Assembly (NCBI GenBank): GCA_036489235.1
Contig: DASXGC010000064.1
Location: forward strand, 1 to 63,067
Reading direction: 5' to 3'
DNA: 63,067 bases
Origin: Vicinamibacterales bacterium
GTDB lineage: Bacteria > Acidobacteriota > Vicinamibacteria > Vicinamibacterales > CAVVIG01
The notes beneath the pieces are model-generated. The model saw only the letters and a program-made list of their open reading frames with translations. It was not told the DNA's origin and made no database searches. A program made the position numbers and the translations under genes. Position 1 is the stretch's first letter, and each line of letters opens with the position of its first letter. Of this stretch, positions 12,965 through 32,620 are shown in pieces.

Positions 12965-14428
12965 GTGAATCGCAGAGCGTTCATGCGGTTGAGCGGCTTG
13001 AGCACGCTGGCGATCGGCGTCGCAGGATCGAGTGCAGCGGCGTCCACCTCGGATGCCGAACAGACGACCACCGGTTCCTCGATTGAGCCGCCCGCCGATC
13101 TCACCATCACGATCGCGCCGGTCACCGTGGAGCTGGCGCCCAACCTCGTCTTCAGCACCATCGGCTACAACGGATCGTCGCCCGGTCCGATCGTGCGAAT
13201 GCGCGAGGGCATTCCACAGATCGTCGACGTGCTCAACCACACCGATGTGCCTGAGCAACTTCATTGGCACGGCCTCTGTTTGCCTTCCGAACTCGACGGC
13301 GCTGAAGAAGAAGGCACGCCGACAGTGCCGCCACACGGCACACGTCGCTATCACTTCACGCCGACACCGGCGGGAACACGGTGGTACCACACGCACACCA
13401 TGGCGATGGCCGACCTGCACCGCGGCAGCTACACGGGACAATTCGGCTTTCTGGTGGTCGAGGGGAACAACGACGCCGGCGCGTACGACCAGGAGGTTTT
13501 CCTCGCCTTGCGCGATTGGGAGCCGTACTTCACGACGCAAATGGCCGACATGGATGCGCTCGCGCCGCGATGGCCGCAGCCTGAGCGTCCTGATGTCGCC
13601 GACATCCGGGCAAACGGACTCGAGGTCAGCGCGGCCTTTTACTCCATCAACGACAAGGCACTCGGCGCAGGCGAACCGATTCGGGTGCGCAACGGCCAAC
13701 GCGTCCTGTTCCACATCCTCAACGCGAGCGCGATCGAGAATCGCAGCATCGCCATGTCGGGTCATCAATTCCGTGTACTGGCGCTGGACGGCAACCCTGT
13801 ACCGTCACCACAGCTGGTGAATCATCTGGTGCTCGGGCCCGGCGAACGCGTCGATGCGACGGTCGAGATGAACCGTCCCGGCGTGTGGATCATGGGTGCG
13901 CTCGAGGACAACGTCCGCAAGGCCGGCCTGGGAATCGTCATCGAGTATGCCGGCCAACGCCGGCCGCCCGAGTGGATCCCGCCGGGGCCGTCAGTATGGG
14001 ACTACACCCTGTTTGGCGAGGCGGCCGCCGGCACCTCCCCGTCGGTCCGTCCACCCGCCGAAACGATCGAGATGATCTTCGAGAAGGTGCCCCGCGCCCA
14101 CGAGGACAAATTCAACGGCTTTTTGATCAATGGAACGCCGTATCCACACGACCGCGAATTCGTGTTGCGTGAAGGGCGCCGCTACCGGCTGGTCCTTCGC
14201 AACCGTACAGACGATGCGCATCCGATGCATTTGCATCGGCATCTATTCGAGCTGGCGGAGATTTACGGGAAGCTCACGTCCGGCGTGATCAAGGACACCG
14301 TCGTTGTCCCGAGGTACGGGCGGGCGATCGTGGAGTTCGTCGCCGACCAGCCAGGGCTGACGCTCTTCCACTGTCACATCCAGCAACACATGGACTACGG
14401 CTTCAAGGCACTGCTGCGCTATGCCTAG
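12965..14428 (+). CDS. Tat-exported multicopper oxidase
   Basis: Twin-arginine signal MNRRAFMRLSG. Copper motifs HWHG, WYHTH, HPMHLHRH and HCHIQQHMDYGF. Confidence 0.9.
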   Translation: MNRRAFMRLSGLSTLAIGVAGSSAAASTSDAEQTTTGSSIEPPADLTITIAPVTVELAPNLVFSTIGYNGSSPGPIVRMREGIPQIVDVLNHTDVPEQLHWHGLCLPSELDGAEEEGTPTVPPHGTRRYHFTPTPAGTRWYHTHTMAMADLHRGSYTGQFGFLVVEGNNDAGAYDQEVFLALRDWEPYFTTQMADMDALAPRWPQPERPDVADIRANGLEVSAAFYSINDKALGAGEPIRVRNGQRVLFHILNASAIENRSIAMSGHQFRVLALDGNPVPSPQLVNHLVLGPGERVDATVEMNRPGVWIMGALEDNVRKAGLGIVIEYAGQRRPPEWIPPGPSVWDYTLFGEAAAGTSPSVRPPAETIEMIFEKVPRAHEDKFNGFLINGTPYPHDREFVLREGRRYRLVLRNRTDDAHPMHLHRHLFELAEIYGKLTSGVIKDTVVVPRYGRAIVEFVADQPGLTLFHCHIQQHMDYGFKALLRYA

Positions 14429-15223: not shown

Positions 15224-17215
15224 TCAGTAGAACGGCTGGTTGTTCGGCGCCTTCGTGAAATCGAAGATGTCGAACAGATCGTCGAGCGCCGGCATGTTCA
15301 CCGGCACGTAGGGGTTCTTCGCCTTGACGACTGGATTCGGGAAGTTGTCGCGGCTGCGGTGGCTCATCGTGCCCAGGTGCCAGTTCCGCTCGATGAACTT
15401 ATCGAGCGAGACGTGATCGCCGTAGCTGTGATTGATCTGTCCACCGGTCGAGTACGACGAGAGCACCAGCAGCGGCATCCGTGGACCGTCGCCGAAGTAG
15501 TCCAAGATTTGCGAGAAGCCGGAATCCCAGTAGCCGCCGGCCTCGTCCCAGGTGACGAAGACCGCAGTGGTCGCCTTCAGTGCGGGGTTCGCTTCGAGTG
15601 CATCGAGGACGTTCTGCACGTAGGCTTCGAAGAGATCGAGCTTCGAACTCTGCGGATGACCGTCGAGGAGACCGTCCGGCTTGCCGATCGAGACCGCCGG
15701 CAGCTCGTTGTTGCCGATGGCGGTGATGAGATCGGTGGTGTCCTTGATGTGCTCCGCTCGCTGCCCGGCATCGCCCATGATCGATTTGGCGTACTGGAAC
15801 GGATTGCAGATCTGGCAGTAAGCGACGCCGAGCGCGTGGATGGGATCGGCAGCGGCGGCCGCCGACAGGCTGGGATTGGCGGGGTTCGCCACCACTGCTT
15901 CAGCCGCCAGAATCGCGGCGTCGTTGTAGGCGCCGCCGTAGTAGGCCCAGCTGATGCTCTTGGTGTTCAGCAGGTCGCCGATCGTCGGCACGCTCGAGGG
16001 CGGCAAAGATCCCTGGACCGCCGGCACCAACGTGCCGTCGGGCAGGTAGCCGGGGTTGGTGTTGTTCAGCATGTAGTAGTGGTTCTGCGCGCAGTTCGGC
16101 TCGGCCGTGTACGGCAGGCTCTCGATGTAGTCGACGATCGGCTTCACACCGGGGTTGGTGACATCAGAGCAATCGCTGAAGTTGTTATCGGCGATGTACT
16201 GGTTGATCGTGCCGGCCTTCGGGTTCGGATTGGCGATGTTCGATGGCGGTGTGACCGGGTTGCCGTTGCCGTCGCTCCAGAAGCCGGCGTCGCCGGTGCC
16301 GAACATGAAGTGGTTGGCGCCGGTTCCGCCGAGGAACGACTGGTGGAAGTTGTCGCTGAGCGTGAAGCGATCGGCCAGCCGCTTCAGAAACGCGGCCTGC
16401 TCCTGCTCGGCGTTGTAGAAGCCCATCTCGTTGCCGAGGCTGCGATTGCTCGCGGAGTAGGTGGCCATCACAAACGGGAACAGGTCGTTCAGGCAACCGG
16501 TCGGATTCGCCTTCGTCGCGTTGGCGAGGCTGCAATCCTGCTGCTGCCAGGCCTGATAGAAACGGTGCGTCATGTCGCCGGTGTAGTCATCGTCGCTGAG
16601 CAGCGGCCCCTGAAGGACGAACGGTCCGGGCGGCAGTGAGCCCGCACCGGGGACGCGCGTGTCGAGGACATTCTTGGCGAGGCCGGTGGCGCCGGTGGTG
16701 AGCAGGCTGGCGTTGGCCGGCTCGATGTCCGGATCCGCAGGAATCGAGATGAACGGCGCCGAGGTGGCGGATGCGGCGGTGGGCGCGCCGTTCGTGTTCG
16801 GCTGCGGCATCAGGTTGGTCGAGAGGTTGTACGGCGTCTTCGCGCTATCCGGCGGTCCGATGTAGAAGAGCGGTTGCGCCGCGACCGAATACTGCTGCGC
16901 CAGGCCGTAGCTCGGTCCTGGCGTGCCGTCCTGATTCACGATGCCGTTGGACAGGATGTTCGAGATCGTTTCCTTCTTCCCCTTCGGCACATACACACCG
17001 AAGGTGTGATCCAGACCGCGGTTCTCGCCGATCAGCACGATGACGTGCTTGATCGGGCTTTCCGTCTTGAACTTGGCAGCCGCATCTTTCGGTGTCTTCT
17101 GTTTCTTCGACGCGTCGACCACCGACTGTGCAATGCCGGTGGCCGACAACGCCACCGAAATGCAGAGCGACGTCGCGAGCTCGCGTTTTCTTCTGCTGAA
17201 AATGTTCTGACGCAT
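15224..17215 (-). CDS. Exported phosphoesterase-family protein (phospholipase C/AcpA acid-phosphatase-like)
   Basis: ..HVIVLIGENRGLDHTFG.. near the N-terminus and ..VTWDEAGGYWD.. are typical of the phosphoesterase family. GGAGGG RBS. Start at MRQNIF. Confidence 0.75.
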   Translation of the reverse strand: MRQNIFSRRKRELATSLCISVALSATGIAQSVVDASKKQKTPKDAAAKFKTESPIKHVIVLIGENRGLDHTFGVYVPKGKKETISNILSNGIVNQDGTPGPSYGLAQQYSVAAQPLFYIGPPDSAKTPYNLSTNLMPQPNTNGAPTAASATSAPFISIPADPDIEPANASLLTTGATGLAKNVLDTRVPGAGSLPPGPFVLQGPLLSDDDYTGDMTHRFYQAWQQQDCSLANATKANPTGCLNDLFPFVMATYSASNRSLGNEMGFYNAEQEQAAFLKRLADRFTLSDNFHQSFLGGTGANHFMFGTGDAGFWSDGNGNPVTPPSNIANPNPKAGTINQYIADNNFSDCSDVTNPGVKPIVDYIESLPYTAEPNCAQNHYYMLNNTNPGYLPDGTLVPAVQGSLPPSSVPTIGDLLNTKSISWAYYGGAYNDAAILAAEAVVANPANPSLSAAAAADPIHALGVAYCQICNPFQYAKSIMGDAGQRAEHIKDTTDLITAIGNNELPAVSIGKPDGLLDGHPQSSKLDLFEAYVQNVLDALEANPALKATTAVFVTWDEAGGYWDSGFSQILDYFGDGPRMPLLVLSSYSTGGQINHSYGDHVSLDKFIERNWHLGTMSHRSRDNFPNPVVKAKNPYVPVNMPALDDLFDIFDFTKAPNNQPFY

Positions 17216-17360
17216 GCGATCCCCCTCCACGGTTGTTGTTCGAACTGAACCAAAACCCGAGAGTGAGATGATGCAGATCGACGATGACGATGGCGTTATC
17301 GCGTCGTATCGTGCGTGAAACGTTTGCGGCTGAGCGTGGCTAAGGAAATCGTTGCGGAAT

Positions 17361-17756
17361 TCAGTGCGCCTCGGACAGCGATTGCCGAATCGCATCCGTC
17401 AACTCGGTTACTGTCACCGGTTTCGTGAGCACGTAGCGCACGTTCAACCGGTTTGCTTCGGCCAGTGCGGTTTCACGATCGACACCGGTCATCATCACCA
17501 CCGGTATGTGCACCAGCGCCGGATTCGATCGCATCTTGCGCAACACCGTCCAGCCATCAACGATCGGCATCGTCACGTCGAGGATGACGAGATCCGGCTT
17601 GCGCTCTCGGGCGATGGCGTATCCGTCGAGTGCGTCAGTCGCGGTGACGATCGTCATGTCCTTGTGCACCGACAACGCCATCGCCATGCCCTCGACGAAG
17701 TTGCGGGAATCGTCGATCAGGAGAATCAGTCGGCGACTCATCAAGGCCCGGCTCAT
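17361..17756 (-). CDS. Single-domain CheY-like response regulator
   Basis: LILLIDD.., ..DLVILDVTMP.. and ..LTKP.. receiver motifs. There is no output domain and no adjacent histidine kinase. Confidence 0.8.
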   Translation of the reverse strand: MSRALMSRRLILLIDDSRNFVEGMAMALSVHKDMTIVTATDALDGYAIARERKPDLVILDVTMPIVDGWTVLRKMRSNPALVHIPVVMMTGVDRETALAEANRLNVRYVLTKPVTVTELTDAIRQSLSEAH

Positions 17757-17825
17757 ATGTGCTTCGCAGTGTACCCGAGACGTCCCGTTACAATCGCAGA
17801 TCGCCGTTAGGAGACAATCAGGAAT

Positions 17826-18077
17826 ATGGTCTGGTTCTTCGAACGCGCCGATGAAGTGCTCGAGCTCGAAACACGCTACGACAACGCCACGTCCGAATAT
17901 GTGCTCGAGCAGCGCCGCCCCGGGGCTCCGGCTGAGGTCGAGCGTTTCAAGGACGCCGCGTCGTTCCGGCAGCGGCTTCAGGCCATCGAAGCGAGTCTCG
18001 GCGGACAGCACTGGGAGCAACGAAGCACGCCGACGATTCTGTCGCACGGCTGGCCGGATACCACGCCGCGACGCTGA
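17826..18077 (+). CDS. Small hypothetical protein (83 aa)
   Basis: AGGAG RBS and high third-position GC. It is divergent from the response regulator. Confidence 0.5.
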   Translation: MVWFFERADEVLELETRYDNATSEYVLEQRRPGAPAEVERFKDAASFRQRLQAIEASLGGQHWEQRSTPTILSHGWPDTTPRR

Positions 18078-18130
18078 GCGTTATCACCGCGGGAACCGGC
18101 CTCTATTGTTCAGTTCGGCAGTACTGCCCA

Positions 18131-18165
18131 CAAACAAAAAGGGCCGGCGCTTGGCGCGCCGGCCC
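18131..18165 (-). terminator. Rho-independent terminator of the exported redox cluster
   Basis: GGGCCGGCGC-loop-GCGCCGGCCC forms a 10-11-bp stem, followed on the minus strand by TTTTTGTTTG. Confidence 0.65.
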
Positions 18166-18191
18166 CTCGACAGCTCAACGAAAACGACCGA

Positions 18192-19547
18192 CTACTGTTG
18201 CTCTTGCTGAGCGGGCGCCGTCGATGTAACGGTGGCGGCGCGACGCTTGTCCTGCTCGACCTTGAAGTCGTCGTCTTTCATGTAGACGATGTTGATCCAC
18301 GCGTGGGCCATTTCGTCCACGGTGCGGTCGCCCCAGCCCACCCACTGATTCGGATCGGGATTGCTCTTCTTCGCGGTGGTGTTGTCGTGCCACGCCGTGA
18401 CCTTCAGGATCGTCCCCTTCGGCAGCAGCGGCGCCACATCGTCGGCGTAGACGTAGGTGGTCATCCAGTTGAAGTTGAAGTCGCTGATCAGGCTCAGGAC
18501 CTGTTTCTGTCCGGTCGGCAGGATGGCTTCGATCATCATCGCCTTGCCGCGCAGATGCATGTGCGCCTGGACGCTCTCGATACGCGCGGCTTCGCGCAGG
18601 ACGGTGAACCCCTCGGCCAGCGACACGGTGTTCGGCCGGATGTCCATCGTGCCGAGCGCCGCCGGCACGAGCGACAGCGAGTCGCGGTACTTCGGCTCCT
18701 GCCCCTTCGGGTAGAAGTAAATGCCCATCTCGACCTTGCTGGTGATCTCCTCGCCAGCCTGCGAGTAGTGGATATCCCAGTGGAACTTGGAACCGGGCAA
18801 CAGCAGCTTGCCGACATCAGGACGCATCATCTCGCCCTGCTTGCCAACGGCCCACTCCATGAACGGCGCCGGCAGTCCGGGAACCCCTGGCGTGCCGGGC
18901 TCGGTCTGCTCGAGGTAGGCAATCGCGTGATGCGTAATCTTCCGGCCCTTCAGAGTTTCGGGACGGATTTCGATCGCGCGAACCCAGCGCGGTTCGGTGA
19001 TGCCGGTCGGCGTGACGCGTTTGTCCCAGACGTCCTGAGACACCGCCGGCATGGTGAAGTCGTACGACTTGATGATCAGGTCAGGTTCGGTCTGCCCGAA
19101 CTGCGCGGCGAAGTTCCAGCCCTGATCGCCGGGGAACTGCTTCGCCGGCGGCATGTCCTTCGGATCGCCCTGCGGCGCGCCGGCATCGACCCAGCGTTCG
19201 ATCAGCGCCACCTGCTCGTCGGTGAGCGAGCGGTCGTTCTTGAACTTCTGGATGCCGACGTTGCGATCGATCTGCCACGGCGGCATCTGGCGGTCGCCGA
19301 CGCGGGCCTTGATCGCCTTTGCCCACGGCCGCGAGTCGGCGTAGGTCATCAGGGACATCGGCGCCATCGAATCCGGCCGGTGACAGGCCTGGCACTTCTC
19401 CTGGAAGATCGGCGCGATGTCCTTGGTGAAGGTCGGAGCCTTCGCCGCGTCGGCGGCGGCGGCCGAGCCCGGGAACATCAGCGCAACACCCATCGCCAAC
19501 CCGCCGATTGCCACGTTCCGCGCGTGTCGAAGTGTCACTTCCATCAT
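18192..19547 (-). CDS. Exported c-type heme domain fused to a PHM/DBM-like copper monooxygenase domain
   Basis: Signal peptide and a single CQACH heme site. This is followed by the ordered motifs ITHHAIAY, FHWDIHY, AHMHLRGK and VDEMAHAW, matching the CuH (HH+H) and CuM (HxH+M) ligand pattern. Confidence 0.65.
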   Translation of the reverse strand: MMEVTLRHARNVAIGGLAMGVALMFPGSAAAADAAKAPTFTKDIAPIFQEKCQACHRPDSMAPMSLMTYADSRPWAKAIKARVGDRQMPPWQIDRNVGIQKFKNDRSLTDEQVALIERWVDAGAPQGDPKDMPPAKQFPGDQGWNFAAQFGQTEPDLIIKSYDFTMPAVSQDVWDKRVTPTGITEPRWVRAIEIRPETLKGRKITHHAIAYLEQTEPGTPGVPGLPAPFMEWAVGKQGEMMRPDVGKLLLPGSKFHWDIHYSQAGEEITSKVEMGIYFYPKGQEPKYRDSLSLVPAALGTMDIRPNTVSLAEGFTVLREAARIESVQAHMHLRGKAMMIEAILPTGQKQVLSLISDFNFNWMTTYVYADDVAPLLPKGTILKVTAWHDNTTAKKSNPDPNQWVGWGDRTVDEMAHAWINIVYMKDDDFKVEQDKRRAATVTSTAPAQQEQQ

Positions 19548-19584
19548 GTGTCGTGCTCCCTCTGTATGCACTGTAGCCGATCTG

Positions 19585-20466
19585 CTACTTAACGGTCACT
19601 TTCAGATACGTATTCGTCCAGCAGCACTGGAATCCGCCGCCACCCTCGCCCGACTCGTCATTAGCCTGGACCCGGAGCATGTAGTCGCCCGCAGCGGAGA
19701 AGGTCGCGTTGGCACTGACCATATCGCCCTGTTTCTGCACCGGGATGCGCGCCTTGTCAAAGGTCACTTTCCCCGGGCCCCGGAACAGGTGAAACGACAC
19801 GGTGGCGACCGACAACGAGCCGCGGCCGGTCGGGGCGGCGCCCTCGAGCGTCGGCTTCGGATCTTCTACCCAGACGCTGATCGGGACCGGTTGGTTCACC
19901 GTTCCGGTCAAGGTGGCGGCCACGCCGAGCGGCGGCCCGGTCACCTTTGCCCCGCCCTGAGAAAACGCCAGCACCGGCGGCTGATTGCCCATGCCCAGTT
20001 CTTTGTATGGGCTGATCGGATATCCCTTGTTCAACGTGAAGGGAATCGTCTGCGTCTCACCGTTGGCCACGATCGTCCAGGTAATCGTCTTGGTACCGAA
20101 ATCCTTCGGCACCTTGACGACGAAGACGCCCCACTGGCGGCCGATTTCAAAGTGGGTGGGCTGGCCCTGGTCGGGGCCGCCCGGGTCGACGTGGTTGTTG
20201 GGACCGACCGGGATGTCGAGGGTTTCCTTGGTGTTCCGGTTGTAGTACCCGAGCATCAGGCTGAAGCTGCCATCGGCGTTGGGGAACCAGCCCTCGTACG
20301 CCGGGGTGATGCTGTTGCCACGGTCGCGCATCGGATCGAGCGGGAGCGTGGTTTGCGGCGCCTGTGCGCTGCCAGCAATCGGCCACGCCGTCACCGCGAC
20401 GGCGATCAACGCCAGCGCTGCGGCCACTCTGTAGCGTCGGTAGAAGAGAGACATTGCAGTACTCAT
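19585..20466 (-). CDS. Exported hypothetical protein (293 aa), Ig-like C-terminal half with a vicinal Cys pair
   Basis: Signal peptide ..AVTAWPIAGSAQA. The C-terminus reads ..GDYMLRVQANDESGEGGGGFQCCWTNTYLKVTVK. Confidence 0.6.
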   Translation of the reverse strand: MSTAMSLFYRRYRVAAALALIAVAVTAWPIAGSAQAPQTTLPLDPMRDRGNSITPAYEGWFPNADGSFSLMLGYYNRNTKETLDIPVGPNNHVDPGGPDQGQPTHFEIGRQWGVFVVKVPKDFGTKTITWTIVANGETQTIPFTLNKGYPISPYKELGMGNQPPVLAFSQGGAKVTGPPLGVAATLTGTVNQPVPISVWVEDPKPTLEGAAPTGRGSLSVATVSFHLFRGPGKVTFDKARIPVQKQGDMVSANATFSAAGDYMLRVQANDESGEGGGGFQCCWTNTYLKVTVK

Positions 20467-20530
20467 TGTTAGGGGTGCTTACATTCTACCAGATCAGGTG
20501 ACATTTTTGTCCACCTCCCGGTTGCACCCC

Positions 20531-21646
20531 TTATCGGTCGGCGGAGGGCTTCGGTTTGACCGCGTTCGGCAGCGCCAGCCGGTTGTCGTGCGTCACGTAG
20601 CTGATTTGCAGGTTGTAGCCGTTCGGCGTGGTGGTGTGGTAGCTCTTGAATGCGGCGACGTGAATCTCGTCGCCAGTGGACGTGTCCACTTGCGCCTTGA
20701 GTCCGCGCTTCTCGAGTTCCGCCTTGACACCGTCGGTATCCCAGGGCTGGATGCCGAACGAGATGTGGTCGATCCGGCCCGCGCCGCCGCGCGCCGCGCC
20801 CTTGGCGAACGCCGGATCGAGCGGGTTCGGACCGCGCACGATGATGTCGCCGATCTCGCCGATCATCAGCTCGTTCTGGCTGCCCTCATCGTAGGTACCC
20901 TGCCAGCCGAGCAGGTTGCGGTAGAACGAGACGCTCTCCTTGTAGTTGCTCACGTTGAAGGAAAAGTGGTCGAGCCACACCGTCTTCCATCCGGTTGATG
21001 CGAACGGCGAGGGGGCGGACAGTGCCGCTTTCGCAGCCGCCGAACCGCGGCCTTTGGCGAGGCCCTCGCCGTTGCACAGCTGCAGATCGAACCCGTCCGG
21101 ATCCTTGACGTGAAAGCTTTCGAACGCGCCGCGGTGATCGGCCACCGGCGTCAGGCCGCGCTGACGTAGCCCGGCCTCGACTCGCGCGGCGTTCCACGGC
21201 GTGATGACGTAGGCGCACGACTCGACCCTGGCATGTACCGGCCCGCCGCGTCCGCCGCCACGTCCGCCCGCGCTCTCGAAGGACTCGGAGGGGACCTGCT
21301 TGAAGATCACGGTTCCCCACGTACCGATGTCAAGCACCGCCTGTGCGCTGTCGCTGCTGCGTGGCGTCCACCCCATCAGCGCAGCGTAGAACGCAGCCTC
21401 AGCCTGACAGTCGGCGACCTGAAACGTCACGTGATCCAGCGCGACCGTTTTCCAGCCGGTGGCCTCGAACACTTCCGGAATCGGCGACGTGTTGCAGGCC
21501 GGGATGCCGAAGGTGCGCATGCAGCGCCCCTGCGCCAGCGCCGGGACCTGCGCGCCCACCAGGGCCACGCCGAGCAGCTGTAGTAGCCCTCGGCGCGACA
21601 ATCCACCGGCGCGATCGACGGCATTCGACGAGTCGGCACTCTGCAT
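20531..21646 (-). CDS. Tat-exported tandem VOC (glyoxalase/extradiol-dioxygenase-fold) protein
   Basis: Twin-arginine signal LSRRGLLQLLG. There are two repeated modules, each starting GWKTV.LDH(V/F).F.V. Start at MQSADSS inside track ORF 20531..21865. Confidence 0.7.
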   Translation of the reverse strand: MQSADSSNAVDRAGGLSRRGLLQLLGVALVGAQVPALAQGRCMRTFGIPACNTSPIPEVFEATGWKTVALDHVTFQVADCQAEAAFYAALMGWTPRSSDSAQAVLDIGTWGTVIFKQVPSESFESAGGRGGGRGGPVHARVESCAYVITPWNAARVEAGLRQRGLTPVADHRGAFESFHVKDPDGFDLQLCNGEGLAKGRGSAAAKAALSAPSPFASTGWKTVWLDHFSFNVSNYKESVSFYRNLLGWQGTYDEGSQNELMIGEIGDIIVRGPNPLDPAFAKGAARGGAGRIDHISFGIQPWDTDGVKAELEKRGLKAQVDTSTGDEIHVAAFKSYHTTTPNGYNLQISYVTHDNRLALPNAVKPKPSADR

Positions 21647-21657
21647 GTTCGTACGCC

Positions 21658-23211
21658 TTACGCCTGCATCGCGCGTTCGTGAATGGTCTTGAGCGCCTGC
21701 CAGCCGGCCGACACCGCGCCTTCCTGCCAGTCCGGCTGCGAGTACGGAGTCGTGACCGCCGACCCGATGAGGACACGGTTGTCCAGCTTCGACAACTGCG
21801 CGCGTCGTGCCTGGGCGCTGCCGGAGGCATAGCCGCCGAGGTTGTACTTCACCTTTTTCCACCACACCGCGTACGCGCTCTCGAACTCGTCGCGGATCTG
21901 CGGGTGGACTTTGCTCGCGTTCATCAGGACGTGTTCGACCCGATCCTTCACCGGCTTGTCGATCAGATCGCCGACCGCATTGTTCACATAGAGTCCGAGC
22001 AGCACGCCCTTCTGGGTGAAGTAATCATTCGACGGGTACGAGAACTCGCCGATCGGCAGATTGGAGTAGAGATGGCCGCCGAAAATCTTGTCGTCCTCTT
22101 CCCAAAACCGGCGCTTCATGGCCAGACCCATCTTTGCGCTGTTGCTGTAAGTCGTCGCCTTGACGGCTTCCATCATCTCCGGCGAGAGATTGATATCCAC
22201 GTTCGCCAGGACCGTGAGCGGCATGCACACCACGACGAAGTCGGCGCTGACTTCGTTCTTCGTGCCGGACTTGGTGTCGAGGTACACGATCTTCACGCCT
22301 TGGGCGTCCTGATGAACCGACTGAACCTCGGCGTTGAACTTGATCTTGCCGTCGCCGATCTTCTTTTGGAACCCCTTGGGGAACTGATCCATGCCGCCGA
22401 CCGGCTGGAAGATCGGCATCGCCGCCGTGCCGTCCATCGCCGGCACCGAGCGCATCCGGCTCGCGTACCCGGATTTCAACAGCGTCGCCAGATCGTACGG
22501 ATCGCCCGGACCGCGGTTGGTGAACGCCTTGTAGGTGTGGCTCTTCGCGTCGAGGTAGCCCTCCGACACGAGGTAGGCCACAAATTTCTGTTTGTCTTCC
22601 GCCGTCATCGGCAGATTCAGTTCGTTCTGATCGATCGCCTTGGCGAGCAGTTCGTTGGTGTGGCCGATCATGTCGGCCTTCACTTCGCGCAGCCGAACGC
22701 GCTTGCCGGCCAACGGACCCGCGGTCGGTCCGTCGTAATAGAAGTAGCTCGCGTCGCTTTCGTTCACGAACAGCTGGACCGGCACGCCGAGTTCTTTGCA
22801 GTAGTTCAGCACGCCGGTGTGCGTGTACGGAATGCGCCACGGGCCGACGTTGACATACTGGCCCTCGTCGAACGTGCAGACCTGACGCTCGCCGCCAATC
22901 TCGGTATGCTCCGCGCCCTTGCGGACACTCCAGCAGAGACCACCGACACGATCCCGTGCCTCGAGCACCTGATAGTCGTAGCCCAGCTTGCCGAGCTCGT
23001 AGGCGACGACCATGCCGGAAACGCCGGCGCCGAGCACCACGATTTTCGACTTCGACTTTCCGCTGAGCGCGGGACGCTGGCCGGCCTGGCCCGCCATCAG
23101 ATCCCACGACGTCATCGCCGTCATGACCAGCGACGATCCGCCGACCACCCCCAACTGTTCAAGGAACCGACGACGGGTGACGGAGGAAATTTCGGTACGC
23201 GATCTCGGCAT
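21658..23211 (-). CDS. Tat-exported flavin-containing amine oxidase/L-amino-acid-oxidase-family protein
   Basis: Twin-arginine signal VTRRRFLEQLG. FAD fold KIVVLGAGVSGMVVAYEL..VLEARDRVGG. AGGAGA RBS. Confidence 0.8.
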   Translation of the reverse strand: MPRSRTEISSVTRRRFLEQLGVVGGSSLVMTAMTSWDLMAGQAGQRPALSGKSKSKIVVLGAGVSGMVVAYELGKLGYDYQVLEARDRVGGLCWSVRKGAEHTEIGGERQVCTFDEGQYVNVGPWRIPYTHTGVLNYCKELGVPVQLFVNESDASYFYYDGPTAGPLAGKRVRLREVKADMIGHTNELLAKAIDQNELNLPMTAEDKQKFVAYLVSEGYLDAKSHTYKAFTNRGPGDPYDLATLLKSGYASRMRSVPAMDGTAAMPIFQPVGGMDQFPKGFQKKIGDGKIKFNAEVQSVHQDAQGVKIVYLDTKSGTKNEVSADFVVVCMPLTVLANVDINLSPEMMEAVKATTYSNSAKMGLAMKRRFWEEDDKIFGGHLYSNLPIGEFSYPSNDYFTQKGVLLGLYVNNAVGDLIDKPVKDRVEHVLMNASKVHPQIRDEFESAYAVWWKKVKYNLGGYASGSAQARRAQLSKLDNRVLIGSAVTTPYSQPDWQEGAVSAGWQALKTIHERAMQA

Positions 23212-26342: not shown

Positions 26343-27614
26343 ATGCGTGTAGTGTCCAGATCGAAACGCCGTCGCAACCAGCCGCTGGCGGCCACTCCTG
26401 ATCCGCCGGCGTCGAACCGGAATCTGTACATCGCCGCCGGCATCAGCCTCGCGGCTGCCGTCGCCGTAACCGCAGCCGTCGCGCTGCGCCGCGATCGGCC
26501 GGCTTCGACCCCGCCGGCGAGTGCTGTCTCGACGCCATTGGCTGCGGCCGGATCGACTGCCGCGCCAGGAGCGACTCACGATCACGCATCCATGCCAGGC
26601 ATGACCGCCGCCGAGTTTGCTACCACCATCCCCAACGTCGCGCCGCCGCCGGGCGAGGCGCCGAAAGGCATGCTCTGGATTCCCGGCGGCGAGTTTTCAA
26701 TGGGCGCCGCCGATCCGCCTGACATGGACGATGTCGGGATGAAGGCGACTACCGATTCGCGGCCGATTCACCGTGTCTACGTCGATGGCTTCTGGATGGA
26801 CGCGACCGTCGTCACCAATACGCAGTTCGACGAATTCGTCCGCGCTACACACTACGTCACCATCGCCGAGCGCGCGCCGTCCGCGGCGGACTTTCCCGGC
26901 GCGCCACCAGAGAATCTCGTCGCCGGCGCGGTGGTGTTCACTCCCCCGGCCCAGCCGGTACCGCTGGACAACTACTTCCGCTGGTGGTCGTACGTGAAAG
27001 GCGCCAACTGGCGGCATCCGCGCGGTCCGGACAGTTCGATCGACGGCAAGGGTAACGACCCGGTCGTCTCGGTGGCGTACGACGATGCCGTGGCTTACGC
27101 GAAATGGAAGGGCACGCGCCTGCCGACCGAAGCGGAGTGGGAATTCGCGGCCCGCGGCGGTTTCAGCGGGAAGCCGTTCGTCTGGGGCGACACTTTTCGT
27201 CCCAACGGCAAGTGGATGGCGAACACGTTTCAGGGCAAGTTCCCGGTCAGCGATCGCGGCGAGGACGGCGCAGTCGGCCTGACCGCTGTCGGCCAGTTCC
27301 CGCCCAATGGTTATGGCCTCTACGACATGGCCGGCAATGTCTGGGAATGGACCAGCGACTGGTACCGGCCCGATTACTACAAGGAGCTGGTGGCCGAGGG
27401 CGGTGTGCCGCGCAATCCGGCAGGACCGATGACGTCGTTCGATCCGTCAGAGCCCAAAGCGCAGAAGCGGGTGCAGCGCGGCGGATCGTTCCTGTGCACG
27501 GACGAGTACTGTTCGCGCTATATGGTCGGTACGCGCGGGAAGGGCGAGCCCGACACCGGCACGAACCACTTGGGCTTCCGCACGATCAAGCCCGGCATCA
27601 GCGCCGCATACTAG
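26343..27614 (+). CDS. Membrane-anchored formylglycine-generating-enzyme (SUMF1/FGE) family protein
   Basis: Motifs ..MLWIPGGEFSMG.., YGLYDMAGNVWEWTSDWY and GGSFLCTDEYCSRY (catalytic Cys pair). The N-terminus has a TM helix and an Ala/Pro linker. Confidence 0.85.
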   Translation: MRVVSRSKRRRNQPLAATPDPPASNRNLYIAAGISLAAAVAVTAAVALRRDRPASTPPASAVSTPLAAAGSTAAPGATHDHASMPGMTAAEFATTIPNVAPPPGEAPKGMLWIPGGEFSMGAADPPDMDDVGMKATTDSRPIHRVYVDGFWMDATVVTNTQFDEFVRATHYVTIAERAPSAADFPGAPPENLVAGAVVFTPPAQPVPLDNYFRWWSYVKGANWRHPRGPDSSIDGKGNDPVVSVAYDDAVAYAKWKGTRLPTEAEWEFAARGGFSGKPFVWGDTFRPNGKWMANTFQGKFPVSDRGEDGAVGLTAVGQFPPNGYGLYDMAGNVWEWTSDWYRPDYYKELVAEGGVPRNPAGPMTSFDPSEPKAQKRVQRGGSFLCTDEYCSRYMVGTRGKGEPDTGTNHLGFRTIKPGISAAY

Positions 27615-30054: not shown

Positions 30055-31227
30055 CTAATACGACTTGCTTACGACCCAGGGATCGGCAAAACGCTGATCG
30101 TGCAGCAGCGGTTCATCAGTCAGGGCGGTGAGGAACGCGATCAGGTCGGCGCGCTGCTCCGGCGTCAGCGTGAAGCCGCGAACCGTCGGACTCCGGTTCG
30201 GATTGGCGTGTCCGTTACCGCGATTGGGACCGTCGCTGATCGTTCGGCCGCCGGCTTCGTAGTGCGCCAGCACATCCTCGAGCGTGGCAATGCTGCCGTC
30301 GTGCATGTACGGCGCCGTCACCGCGATGTTGCGGAGCGTCGGCGCCTTGAATTTCCCGACGTCCTCGGCCTTCCCGGTCACCTCGTAGATGCCGGTGTTC
30401 GGCGGCGGATACGACAACGCGCCGGCGAGGTTGTACAGGCCGGTGTTGTGAAATTCGATCTCGGTATCGCGGTGCCCCTCGAAATCCACGGCGCCCGACA
30501 TGTTGAAGCCGCCGTGGCAGCGGAAACACGACAGCGGCTGACTGAAGAACAACGTCTCGCCTCGACGTGCGGCCGGCGGAATCGCGTTGTCGTCACGGTC
30601 GTCGTGATACCGGTCGTACGGTGACCGCGCCGAAATGATCGTGCGCTCGAAACAGGCCAGCGCCTGGGTCACGTGGTCGACCGAAAATGGATCGCCGCCC
30701 GGACCGAAGGCCTGCTCGAACAACGTCGGGTAACGCGGGTCCTGGCGCAGCCGCTCCAGCAAGGCCGTTCCCGGCCGTTGCAGTCCGAGTTCGATTGGGT
30801 GGTCGCCGAACATCGGCACCAGCGCCTGGTCCTCGAGTTTCGTCATCGCCGGGTTGCCCCAGGTCAGCGCCGCGGCGTAGGCCACATTTACCAGGCTCAT
30901 GGCGCCGCGCGGATGCACTTCGCCGGTCGAACCCACCGCCCGAGGCTTGCCGTCGGTAAAGGCGCGCGCCTGCTCATGACAGCTGCTGCACGACTGGGTA
31001 CCGTTGGTCGAGAGACGGGTGTCGTAGAACAGGTAGCGACCGAGCTCCGCTTTTGCGGCGGACATCGGATTGGTTGCGGGAATGCGCGGCTTGGGAAACG
31101 TCTTCGGGATGCTCGAGAAGTACCCGGCCGGCGGCGTCTGCGGCAGCTGAGCGGGCACGGCCGCCAGAACCAGCGTGGCCGACCACACCGCAACGGCGGC
31201 GCCGAGTGCCCTGCTGCTCGCGATCAT
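30055..31227 (-). CDS. Di-heme cytochrome c peroxidase-family enzyme (MauG/MbnH-like)
   Basis: Signal peptide and two heme sites, CSSCH and CFRCH. ..LGRYLFYDTRLS.. and ..APTLRNIAVTAPYMHDGS.. are typical of the family. The ATG overlaps the upstream stop (ATGA). Confidence 0.8.
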   Translation of the reverse strand: MIASSRALGAAVAVWSATLVLAAVPAQLPQTPPAGYFSSIPKTFPKPRIPATNPMSAAKAELGRYLFYDTRLSTNGTQSCSSCHEQARAFTDGKPRAVGSTGEVHPRGAMSLVNVAYAAALTWGNPAMTKLEDQALVPMFGDHPIELGLQRPGTALLERLRQDPRYPTLFEQAFGPGGDPFSVDHVTQALACFERTIISARSPYDRYHDDRDDNAIPPAARRGETLFFSQPLSCFRCHGGFNMSGAVDFEGHRDTEIEFHNTGLYNLAGALSYPPPNTGIYEVTGKAEDVGKFKAPTLRNIAVTAPYMHDGSIATLEDVLAHYEAGGRTISDGPNRGNGHANPNRSPTVRGFTLTPEQRADLIAFLTALTDEPLLHDQRFADPWVVSKSY

Positions 31228-31763
31228 TTCACCGCGCGGACGACCTCGATGCGCTGCAGCATCCGAATCGATCGCGCACCCCGCTTGTCGTGTGGCGCGA
31301 CGATACGCAGCGGTCCCTGGTAGTCGAAGAGCGGATTGCCGTCGATAGTATCGGCGACGATGATGTCGTTCGGCGTGAACGCAGGATCCAACTCCGCAAG
31401 CGAAAAGACGACCTGGTAGCCATCCTTGGCGGTGGCCTGGACGTAAGTCGTCAGCGCCTTTCCCGACAGCTCCCGACCAAGGGGCGCTCCCGCGCGCTTC
31501 AGCAGCTCGCCGACCAGGACGCCTTCGTAGTGCACCTCCTTGGCTTCCTCGCTCACGGTGACGGCGGTACGGGGCATCGTCTTGAGCTCGGCTGGCGTGA
31601 TCGCGAACGGCTTCGGGATGTCGCCGCCAATCTGCAACGTCGCGTCCGCAGCGACCGCAGCGGCCTGACCACTCGCTACGGCAACCGTCCGCGATCCAAC
31701 CACGAGGACGAAAGCCAAGGCGGCGGCCGACACCCCTGCGCGGGAACGGACGTGGGGCTTCAT
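31224..31763 (-). CDS. Small exported protein with an oxidoreductase molybdopterin-binding (SUOX-fold)-like domain
   Basis: Signal peptide, then L.IGGD..KPF.IT.AELK.MP...V......YEGVL.GELLKRAG....DGY.VVFSLAE...GPLRIV.P.D..GARS...L..I.V. This pattern matches my recollection of short molybdopterin-binding domain proteins. Confidence 0.5.
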   Translation of the reverse strand: MKPHVRSRAGVSAAALAFVLVVGSRTVAVASGQAAAVAADATLQIGGDIPKPFAITPAELKTMPRTAVTVSEEAKEVHYEGVLVGELLKRAGAPLGRELSGKALTTYVQATAKDGYQVVFSLAELDPAFTPNDIIVADTIDGNPLFDYQGPLRIVAPHDKRGARSIRMLQRIEVVRAVK

Positions 31764-31843
31764 GATCGGAAAGTTTACACCAGAGGCGGCTTGAACCGGC
31801 CCGGCAGTCGCCTCTCCCCGTGCTGAACCGGCTACAATGAACT

Positions 31844-32620
31844 GTGCTCTCGAGAATGCGCGTTGCGCTTGTGTCGGTGGTCGCAACGTTTGCGCTGAGC
31901 GGGCTGGCGCTCGCCCAGGATCTGACCGTCGCGGCCGCGTCAGACCTGCAGTCCGCACTGCCAGCCGTGACAGCGCAGTTCGAGAAGGACACCGGCCATC
32001 ACGTCAGCCTCACCTTTGGATCCTCCGGCAATTTCTTCACCCAGATCGAAAACGGCGCACCGTTCGACGTGTTTCTTTCCGCCGACATCGACTATCCGCG
32101 CCAGCTCGAACGATCGGGCAAAGGCGAACGCGGCACGCTGTACGCATACGCCACAGGCCGCCTCGTGCTCTGGACCCGCAATGATTCCGGAATCGACCTG
32201 CACCGCGGTCTCGTAGTGCTGACGGAGGGCCGCGTCAAGCGGGTCGCGATTGCCAATCCGGAACACGCGCCCTACGGGCGCGCCGCGATGGCCGCCTTAC
32301 ATCACGAAGAGGTCTACAACCGCGTCATCGAGAAGCTGGTGATCGGCGAGAACATTGCGCAGACCGCGCAATTCGTTCAATTCGGCAGCGCTGACGTCGC
32401 CATCATCGCGCTTTCCCTGGCGCTGTCGCCGGCCTTGCAAAAGGACGGTACCTACGTCGAGATCCCCGAGAGCGCTCACCCGCCGATCGAGCAGGCGGCC
32501 ATTGCCATCGCCGCCTCGCGCCAACTGGCGCTCGCTCGACAGTTCATCGACTATCTGAAGCGTCCCGAGACTGCCCGCCTGCTGCAATCACTGGGCTTCG
32601 CCGCCGCGCCGATCCGCTGA
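31844..32620 (+). CDS. modA: Molybdate ABC transporter periplasmic substrate-binding protein
   Basis: Signal peptide, then ..LTVAAASDLQ..TFGSSG..QIENGAPFDVFLSAD.., typical of ModA. An alternative ATG start lies at 31856. Confidence 0.85.
   Translation: MLSRMRVALVSVVATFALSGLALAQDLTVAAASDLQSALPAVTAQFEKDTGHHVSLTFGSSGNFFTQIENGAPFDVFLSADIDYPRQLERSGKGERGTLYAYATGRLVLWTRNDSGIDLHRGLVVLTEGRVKRVAIANPEHAPYGRAAMAALHHEEVYNRVIEKLVIGENIAQTAQFVQFGSADVAIIALSLALSPALQKDGTYVEIPESAHPPIEQAAIAIAASRQLALARQFIDYLKRPETARLLQSLGFAAAPIR

Follow-up and report, generated by a model that had tools for sequence, protein, structure and literature searches.

To our knowledge, copper monooxygenases of the peptidylglycine monooxygenase/dopamine beta-monooxygenase (PHM/DBM) type have been characterized only in eukaryotes, where they make amidated peptide hormones and noradrenaline in an ascorbate-dependent manner. 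The dopamine enzyme (DBM, also called DBH) is grouped with tyramine beta-monooxygenase and MOXD1. PHM and DBM are fed by cytochrome b561 and ascorbate, and the cytochrome domain of cellobiose dehydrogenase feeds lytic polysaccharide monooxygenases (LPMOs). Cytochrome c donors that are tethered to the enzyme itself are found in three-domain copper nitrite reductases, in subunit II of caa3 oxidase and in cytochrome-c-fused NosZ. Here, we describe a gene on the minus strand of a 63,067-nucleotide stretch of DNA (hereafter ‘the window’) from a soil Vicinamibacterales bacterium of the Acidobacteriota (contig DASXGC010000064.1). Its product is predicted to combine a c-type heme module with a PHM/DBM-type two-copper domain in one polypeptide. 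An earlier note, made from the sequence alone, had proposed this fusion, and it is supported by three independent lines of evidence: a profile of the protein family, Pfam matches among homologues and a structural search with Foldseek.

Link of the protein to the PHM/DBH fold

We compared a profile of 64 full-length homologues (alignment A2; about 28-50% identity, each with E ≤ 1e-54 to the fusion protein) with the sequences in the PDB. The profile reached human DBH (4zel) with an E value of 4.2e-10 and 13 distinct rat PHM sequences with E values from 3.7e-9 to 1e-6, and in these alignments all six copper ligands coincide residue for residue, as counted along the printed alignments after addition of the chain offsets (DBH, +39; PHM, +49). 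The numbering of the copper ligands in PHM and DBH is established for those enzymes, and M413 corresponds to PHM M314 in the motif DEMC. When the 64 homologues were scanned singly against Pfam, Cu2_monoox_C was matched by 31 of them (best E 2.5e-8) and Cu2_monooxygen by nine, and at least one homologue exceeded the 23-bit cut-off of Cu2_monoox_C.

The third line comes from an AlphaFold2 model of the fusion protein, which was built from close relatives only. In a Foldseek search of the PDB with this model, the first 22 matches were all DBH or PHM chains (E 6.6e-8 to 4.7e-6, probability 1.0), and only after a distinct gap came beta-sandwich proteins of other, unrelated kinds. The predicted structure links the protein to the PHM/DBH fold directly, through its own model. 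The earlier note had held that the absence of any match to the copper-monooxygenase fold would speak against the fusion; both the family profile and Foldseek reach DBH and PHM. Its fold and ligands place the protein in the PHM/DBM superfamily (Pfam PF01082 and PF03712), within a divergent bacterial branch that is mostly missed by curated models.

The conservation of the ligands points in the same direction. Eight positions in alignment A2 (C52, C55, H56 and M88 of the heme module, and H206, H207, H260 and H329 of the copper module) are invariant in 64 of 64 sequences, while H331 is kept in 63 and M413 in 62, the exceptions being one truncated and one degenerate sequence. Given that the mean column identity of this alignment is only 12%, the ligand pattern read from these sequences is not a matter of chance. 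We also examined 85 sequences from species-representative genomes, in which every non-gap heme or copper ligand position was conserved. The spacings between successive ligands are 53, 69 and 82 residues, compared with 64, 70 and 70 in PHM and 70, 79 and 73 in DBH (from the sequence and the known numbering). Translation confirmed the motifs named in the earlier note, including CQACH (residues 52-56 here) and the copper motifs HH, HxH and Met; the note's residue numbers, however, were 8 too high, having been counted from a GTG at 19571 rather than from the ATG at 19547, and within FHWDIHY it chose the wrong histidine. The residue that it numbered 264 is H256 (18780-18782), a variable position most often occupied by V, R, T, I or S in homologues, whereas the invariant H260 lies four residues further on.

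Among the described enzymes, DBH (PDB 4ZEL) is the best match of both the profile and Foldseek. The alignment spans both copper domains through M487, and the DBH motif SQLHTH has a Q two residues before HxH, as does the fusion protein. Unlike DBH, the fusion protein has a c-type cytochrome as its N-terminal module and no C-terminal dimerisation domain; a DOMON domain gave no match, and the protein ends about 25 residues past the CuM domain. A DBM-type protein was therefore rejected, there being no DOMON or dimerisation domain and no disulfides. PHM (PDB 1PHM, 1OPM and 1SDW) shares the tandem beta-sandwiches, a CuH site of three histidines, a CuM site of the form His-x-His...Met and a D-E-M motif at the methionine. 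It differs in overall sequence (about 12% identity), in its diffusible ascorbate donor, the place of which is taken here by the N-terminal heme c, and in its five disulfides and its location in secretory granules, whereas the fusion protein has no disulfide, would reside in the bacterial periplasm and has a dedicated partner.

The likeness to other electron-relay systems is one of design. Tethered-cytochrome copper enzymes also have a fused His/Met heme c that feeds a mononuclear copper entry site in the periplasm, but their folds are of the cupredoxin type, their chemistry is different and none of them is a PHM-type monooxygenase. In the LPMO and b561 relays, a heme protein likewise reduces a copper monooxygenase; there, however, the heme is of the b type and resides in a separate protein or acts across a membrane, while in the fusion protein a c-type heme would be part of the same polypeptide.

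Several observations weigh against reading the protein as an active enzyme of the PHM/DBM type. On its own, it gave no Pfam match to Cu2_monooxygen or Cu2_monoox_C even at E ≤ 1, no NCBIfam match and nothing significant among the PDB sequences, and a profile of close relatives only (alignment A1) did not reach PHM or DBH in the PDB. Because the single protein and the close-relative profile both miss these enzymes, the sequence link is transitive, via the wider family. The AlphaFold2 model is only moderate (pLDDT 64.5, and below 50 around the heme site and at residues 388-413), and the Foldseek superpositions on DBH and PHM have TM scores of 0.31-0.51 with root-mean-square deviations of 7-10 A. 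R240, N316 and Y318 of PHM are not conserved, corresponding to Q327, H415 and W417 at positions that vary across the family, and the disulfides are all absent, with only two cysteines in the protein, so that catalytic details may differ. Finally, the genomic context offers no clue to a substrate.

Heme domain, gene and partner

The N-terminal domain matched Cytochrome_CBB3 at 19.3 bits, below the Pfam cut-off of 27, and Cytochrom_C at residues 47-120, also below threshold. Relatives exceed the Cytochrome_CBB3 cut-off (37.1 bits, for example); among the 64 full-length homologues, 46 matched this model at E ≤ 0.01 and 14 matched Haem_bd. The features of a class I c-type cytochrome are present, namely CxxCH, a signal-like N-terminus (judged by eye) and the invariant M88. 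In cytochrome c551-type proteins, the axial methionine is carried by an MPP motif. The invariant M88 in such a motif argues for a six-coordinate His/Met heme c of the electron-transfer type, and not for a catalytic one. The closest solved relatives are PccH (4RLR) and the heme domain of the hydrazine synthase alpha subunit (5C2V), which share the motif T[FY]xKDIxPIFxxxCxxCH. Unlike the domain described here, they stand alone or form part of unrelated enzymes, and the matches are marginal (E about 1e-3 with a broad profile, and otherwise 0.25-0.36). Only a short stretch with invariant positions (G127, P133, W144, P155 and D156) separates the heme domain from the first copper domain; this suggests that the heme domain may be docked in a fixed way rather than held on a floppy tether.

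The gene ends with a TAG stop codon at 18192-18194, and the plus-strand translation of 18192-19547 is a long stop-free frame that is unrelated to the protein. Two starts are possible: the ATG at 19547 gives 451 amino acids (aa) and the GTG at 19571 gives 459. We favour the former because a Shine-Dalgarno-like site (AGAGGGAG) lies 8 nt upstream of the ATG; gene calls of homologues range from 444 to 453 aa and include 451. The N-terminal segment MMEVTLRHARNVAIGGLAMGVALMFPGSAAA, read by eye, has a basic n-region, a hydrophobic core and AAA ahead of a likely cleavage site, with neither a twin-arginine motif nor a lipobox cysteine. This segment presumably acts as a Sec-type signal peptide, in agreement with the earlier note. 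Both cysteines of the protein are in the heme motif, and no second copy of the gene was found within the window. The coordinates of all features are collected in Table 1.

Table 1. Features of the fusion gene and its partner in the window, with the observations on which each assignment is based.
Feature	Position	Strand	Description and basis
Fusion gene, whole	18192..19547	minus	451-aa exported monoheme cytochrome c fused to a PHM/DBM-like two-copper module; open reading frame call and translation
Shine-Dalgarno-like site	19556..19563	minus	AGAGGGAG, 8 nt upstream of ATG 19547; sequence reading
Putative Sec-type signal peptide, residues 1-31	19455..19547	minus	MMEVTLRHARNVAIGGLAMGVALMFPGSAAA; read by eye
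Class-I-like monoheme cytochrome c domain, about residues 36-125	19173..19442	minus	Sub-threshold Pfam matches; relatives above cut-off
CQACH heme c attachment motif (C52, C55, H56)	19380..19394	minus	Invariant in 64/64
M88 in RQMPPW, probable sixth (axial) heme ligand	19284..19286	minus	Invariant in 64/64; ligand role predicted
First beta-sandwich, equivalent of the CuH (electron-entry) domain, about residues 150-290	18678..19100	minus	DBH/PHM profile alignment, Cu2_monooxygen in relatives, Foldseek, model strands
H206-H207 (ITHHAIAY), CuH	18927..18932	minus	Aligned with PHM H107/H108 and DBH H262/H263
H260 (FHWDIHY), third CuH ligand	18768..18770	minus	Aligned with PHM H172 and DBH H333
Second beta-sandwich, equivalent of the CuM (O2-binding, catalytic) domain, about residues 291-425	18273..18677	minus	Cu2_monoox_C in relatives, DBH alignment through M487, Foldseek
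H329-M-H331 (AHMHLRGK), CuM	18555..18563	minus	Aligned with PHM H242/H244 and DBH H412/H414
D411-E412-M413 (VDEMAHAW), CuM thioether ligand M413	18309..18317	minus	Aligned with DBH M487 in EEMC
Partner gene	19585..20466	minus	37 nt upstream of the fusion gene; 293-aa secreted protein with two beta-sandwich domains, the C-terminal one PKD/cadherin-like
Partner C-terminal motif GGGGFQCCW, residues 275-283, with adjacent cysteines	19618..19644	minus	Sequence comparison

The adjoining gene encodes a protein with a signal-like N-terminus, which we call the partner. In four initial loci, a partner-related gene stood beside the fusion gene while all other neighbours were different. We also retrieved 80 loci from species-representative genomes with alignment A1; nearly all of these are metagenome-assembled genomes of Acidobacteriota/Vicinamibacterales, and 565 relatives were confirmed. 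With tblastn, a same-strand partner was found directly adjoining the fusion gene in every one of 84 loci except seven. For four of these exceptions, the contig or the stored locus stops at the fusion gene; in the other three (L027, L037 and L075), which have full flanks, tblastn found no partner beside the fusion gene, and these may be true exceptions or may have very divergent partners. The position of the partner differs between two clades, being upstream where the fusion protein is at least 70% identical to ours and downstream where it is 59-66% identical, and many genomes hold one pair of each kind (L043 and L063, for example, are on one contig). A partner homologue (31% identity, E 8e-28) is also found downstream of the fusion gene in L087, the protein of which is 45% identical to ours. 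Given that the adjacency survives an inversion of the gene order, it provides strong evidence that the two genes form a functional pair.

The partner family comprises 6677 clusters, all named hypothetical. The partner itself had no Pfam match, and neither a close nor a diverse profile matched any PDB sequence; weak PKD matches were obtained in 21 of 30 partner relatives. Its AlphaFold model, which is of low confidence (pLDDT 60), has two beta-sandwich domains, for which Foldseek returned only generic Ig, cadherin or S-layer-like folds. In the conserved N-terminal domain, polar residues and glycines are kept and there is no invariant His, Cys or Met, so that a redox or metal role appears unlikely from the sequence, and the partner is probably a non-redox subunit of the enzyme. 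The C-terminal motif, in the form GGGG[FDE]QCCW, is present in 66 of 70 Vicinamibacterales partners, and the exceptions are three truncated or frame-shifted open reading frames and the partner of L087.

When all open reading frames of the 80 loci were clustered, no third conserved family emerged. The most frequent extra neighbour, a TonB-dependent-receptor-like outer-membrane protein, occurred in 12 of the 80 loci, and the neighbours in the window itself recur in the two or three nearest genomes only. A larger pathway cluster or operon was therefore rejected, since only the fusion gene and its partner are conserved across loci.

Proposed mechanism and alternatives

On balance we lean, though not heavily, towards a periplasmic two-subunit copper monooxygenase in which a built-in His/Met heme c takes the place of ascorbate as the source of electrons. 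This explanation builds on the domain identity, ligand conservation, fold and gene pairing described above. The occupancy of the sites by copper and heme, the direction of electron flow, the monooxygenase chemistry and the formation of a complex are what we infer.

In the proposed mechanism, the Sec-exported enzyme would carry a covalent heme c with His56 and Met88 as ligands, followed by a CuH domain (H206, H207 and H260) and a CuM domain (H329, H331 and M413). Since the heme would be six-coordinate with no open site, it could serve as an electron relay only, taking up single electrons from periplasmic respiratory carriers and passing them across the short conserved linker to the adjacent CuH. 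CuH would in turn reduce CuM, which would bind O2 and hydroxylate, at a C-H bond, a substrate lodged between the two copper domains. The heme would thus substitute for the eukaryotic supply of ascorbate and cytochrome b561, and the partner would most likely be a structural or substrate-recruiting subunit. A PHM orthologue with a PHM-type peptidyl-glycine as substrate was ruled out because the carboxylate-binding residues of PHM are not kept.

The same architecture might instead serve a periplasmic oxidase, peroxidase or detoxifier that is not a C-H hydroxylase, with the heme electrons going to a small inorganic molecule such as O2, H2O2, superoxide, NO or nitrite. We consider this rather unlikely. 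No substrate-related genes are conserved around the pair, as would be expected for a ubiquitous substrate, and the conservation of the enzyme across genera is very high (75-97%). Uncoupled PHM makes H2O2, and PHM can run on peroxide. Some distant family members (P0134, P0216 and P0240) bear an N-terminal AhpC/TSA-like domain of the thioredoxin (peroxiredoxin) fold, followed by cytochrome c and a PHM-like module with all ligands, and members of this type are 30-35% identical to our protein over the full length. However, these AhpC/TSA-like domains have a single Cys in a GT[EA]CP motif of unclear function and are absent from our protein; moreover, every characterized member of the PHM/DBM fold is a monooxygenase, and a dedicated, co-evolving two-domain partner is hard to account for if the substrate is a small inorganic molecule.

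Electrons could also flow the other way, so that the copper sites oxidise a substrate and the heme c passes the electrons to the respiratory chain, which would make the protein a copper dehydrogenase. A His/Met heme c would serve equally well as an exit port, the periplasmic location and high conservation would fit a role in energy metabolism, and there are two paralogous pairs per genome. We nevertheless regard this as improbable, because the His2Met CuM site of every known relative activates O2, dehydrogenases are not known in this fold, and no quinone or other oxidising cofactor is evident.

Still less probable, in our estimation, is that the enzyme is a maturase that hydroxylates its own partner within the NDxSGxGGGGxQCCW loop, either at a glycine C-alpha or at the tryptophan, in the latter case toward a protein-derived redox cofactor. 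PHM does hydroxylate a peptide glycine, and heme enzymes such as MauG build Trp-derived cofactors; the strict gene pairing and the retention of the glycine-rich loop with Cys-Cys-Trp in 66 of the 70 partners would also agree with such a role. On the other hand, the motif is missing from the L087 partner, even though the pairing is kept there at 45% enzyme identity, the supposed maturase is more conserved than its product (75-97% versus 62-95%), and the partner has no recognisable catalytic domain. If true, the pair would be a self-contained system for modifying a protein, the Ig-like partner acquiring a redox cofactor based on glycine or tryptophan, which would be a previously unknown route to protein-derived cofactors and a new activity for the PHM fold.

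Lastly, it seems very improbable that the protein is simply an electron-transfer cytochrome c whose large appendage, the PHM-like module, is a remnant devoid of catalysis, with a binding or structural role like the beta-sandwiches of PNGase F-like proteins. In favour of this view, relatives are publicly annotated as ‘cytochrome c’ or ‘hypothetical protein’, our protein fails the Pfam copper-monooxygenase models and a degenerate paralogue without the HH pair stands beside one distant relative. Against it, 62-64 of the 64 homologues retain the six copper ligands amid neighbouring residues that vary, a pattern that would be expected only of metal sites that still function.

Wider family, surroundings and significance

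The fusion protein is one of a very large family. At least 7999 homologous clusters were found at 90% identity, and the best 120 of these, which are 75-97% identical to our protein, come from Vicinamibacterales or Luteitalea (Acidobacteriota) and are named ‘hypothetical protein’ or ‘mono/diheme cytochrome c family protein’ in their sources. An exhaustive search of 50%-identity representatives gave 14,983 at E ≤ 1e-3, 8,602 at E ≤ 1e-10 and 1,746 at E ≤ 1e-30; some of the 14,983 may owe their match to the cytochrome domain only. The names obtained in a profile search were similar, with precomputed Pfam domains almost always blank and occasionally PF03712 or PF13442.

Variant architectures occur among the distant members. 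In P0134, the whole unit is repeated twice with hydrophobic, membrane-anchor-like segments; P0216 has a C-terminal alpha/beta hydrolase domain, and others have added TPR or EF-hand segments. The protein in the window has no AhpC/TSA-like domain, anchors, tandem duplication or hydrolase, TPR or EF-hand additions. Upstream of the gene for P0398 (966-2564), a relative at 38% identity, lies a degenerate PHM-like paralogue (L085, 1-951; 21% identity, E 3.6e-8) without the His-His pair, and on a longer contig this is preceded by a gene for a heavy-metal-binding-domain (HMBD) protein. In a distant branch, L086 (4428-14406) holds a cluster of four paralogues, one of which is an 876-aa tandem duplication of the cytochrome c and PHM-like unit. 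This cluster also encodes a tannase-like DUF6351 protein, a GH172 glycoside hydrolase, two TonB-dependent-receptor-like proteins and an IclR/periplasmic-binding regulator, and it resembles a polymer-utilisation locus.

In the window, the gene directly upstream of the pair (20531-21646, minus strand) encodes a two-domain glyoxalase/VOC-family protein with the twin-arginine-like signal SRRGLLQLLG, and further upstream on the same strand is a flavin amine oxidase (21658-23211, minus; Pfam Amino_oxidase, E 3.5e-48) with the twin-arginine-like signal RRRFLEQLG. Downstream of the fusion gene are a response-regulator receiver protein (17361-18047, minus), in which the first 100 or so residues are unassigned, and a 723-aa protein of the phosphoesterase (phospholipase C/acid phosphatase) family (15224-17395, minus); their longest open reading frames overlap by 35 nt, and one of the starts is probably over-called. 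A second periplasmic copper enzyme is encoded nearby (12965-14428, plus), a three-domain multicopper oxidase (Cu-oxidase, Cu-oxidase_2 and Cu-oxidase_3) with the twin-arginine-like sequence MNRRAFMRLSG. The window also holds a 645-aa protein with two CxxCH motifs (30055-31992, minus), which matches CCP_MauG (di-haem cytochrome c peroxidase/MauG, E 2.7e-46) and has about 300 N-terminal residues without assignment, and an FGE-sulfatase (formylglycine-generating enzyme-like) family protein (26343-27614, plus; E 4.4e-75). Aerobic members of the FGE family use copper.

The enzyme family is transcribed in soil, since contigs of close relatives, 80-99% alike across the fusion gene, were found in a soil metatranscriptome (run X24, the sole run that shared words with the locus). 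Across positions 18000-20700 of the window, the word depth in X24 reached about 359 in the fusion gene, at most 8 in the partner and 0 to about 1 in the flanks; contig depth in this run is not a measure of expression, and the contrast may reflect only the higher nucleotide conservation of the fusion gene.

A literature search conducted largely outside the subscription journals found no description of bacterial or cytochrome-fused PHM/DBM-type enzymes, nor did the reviews consulted refer to any, consistent with the statement in the earlier note that no member of such a fusion had been characterized. As far as can be told, the fusion is visible in the sequence databases and unstudied, and its near-constant partner appears to be unreported.

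The locus reveals a very large bacterial branch of the PHM/DBM enzymes with a built-in c-type heme donor and an accompanying second subunit. How electrons travel over long range into CuH and from one copper to the other is still debated for PHM. If active, the protein would allow this to be studied in a single natural polypeptide with no diffusible reductant, and it would also offer an ascorbate-independent copper hydroxylase scaffold that could be driven by a cytochrome or an electrode. For the Vicinamibacteria, which are abundant in soil, an active enzyme would point to a previously unrecognised capacity for C-H oxidation in the periplasm.

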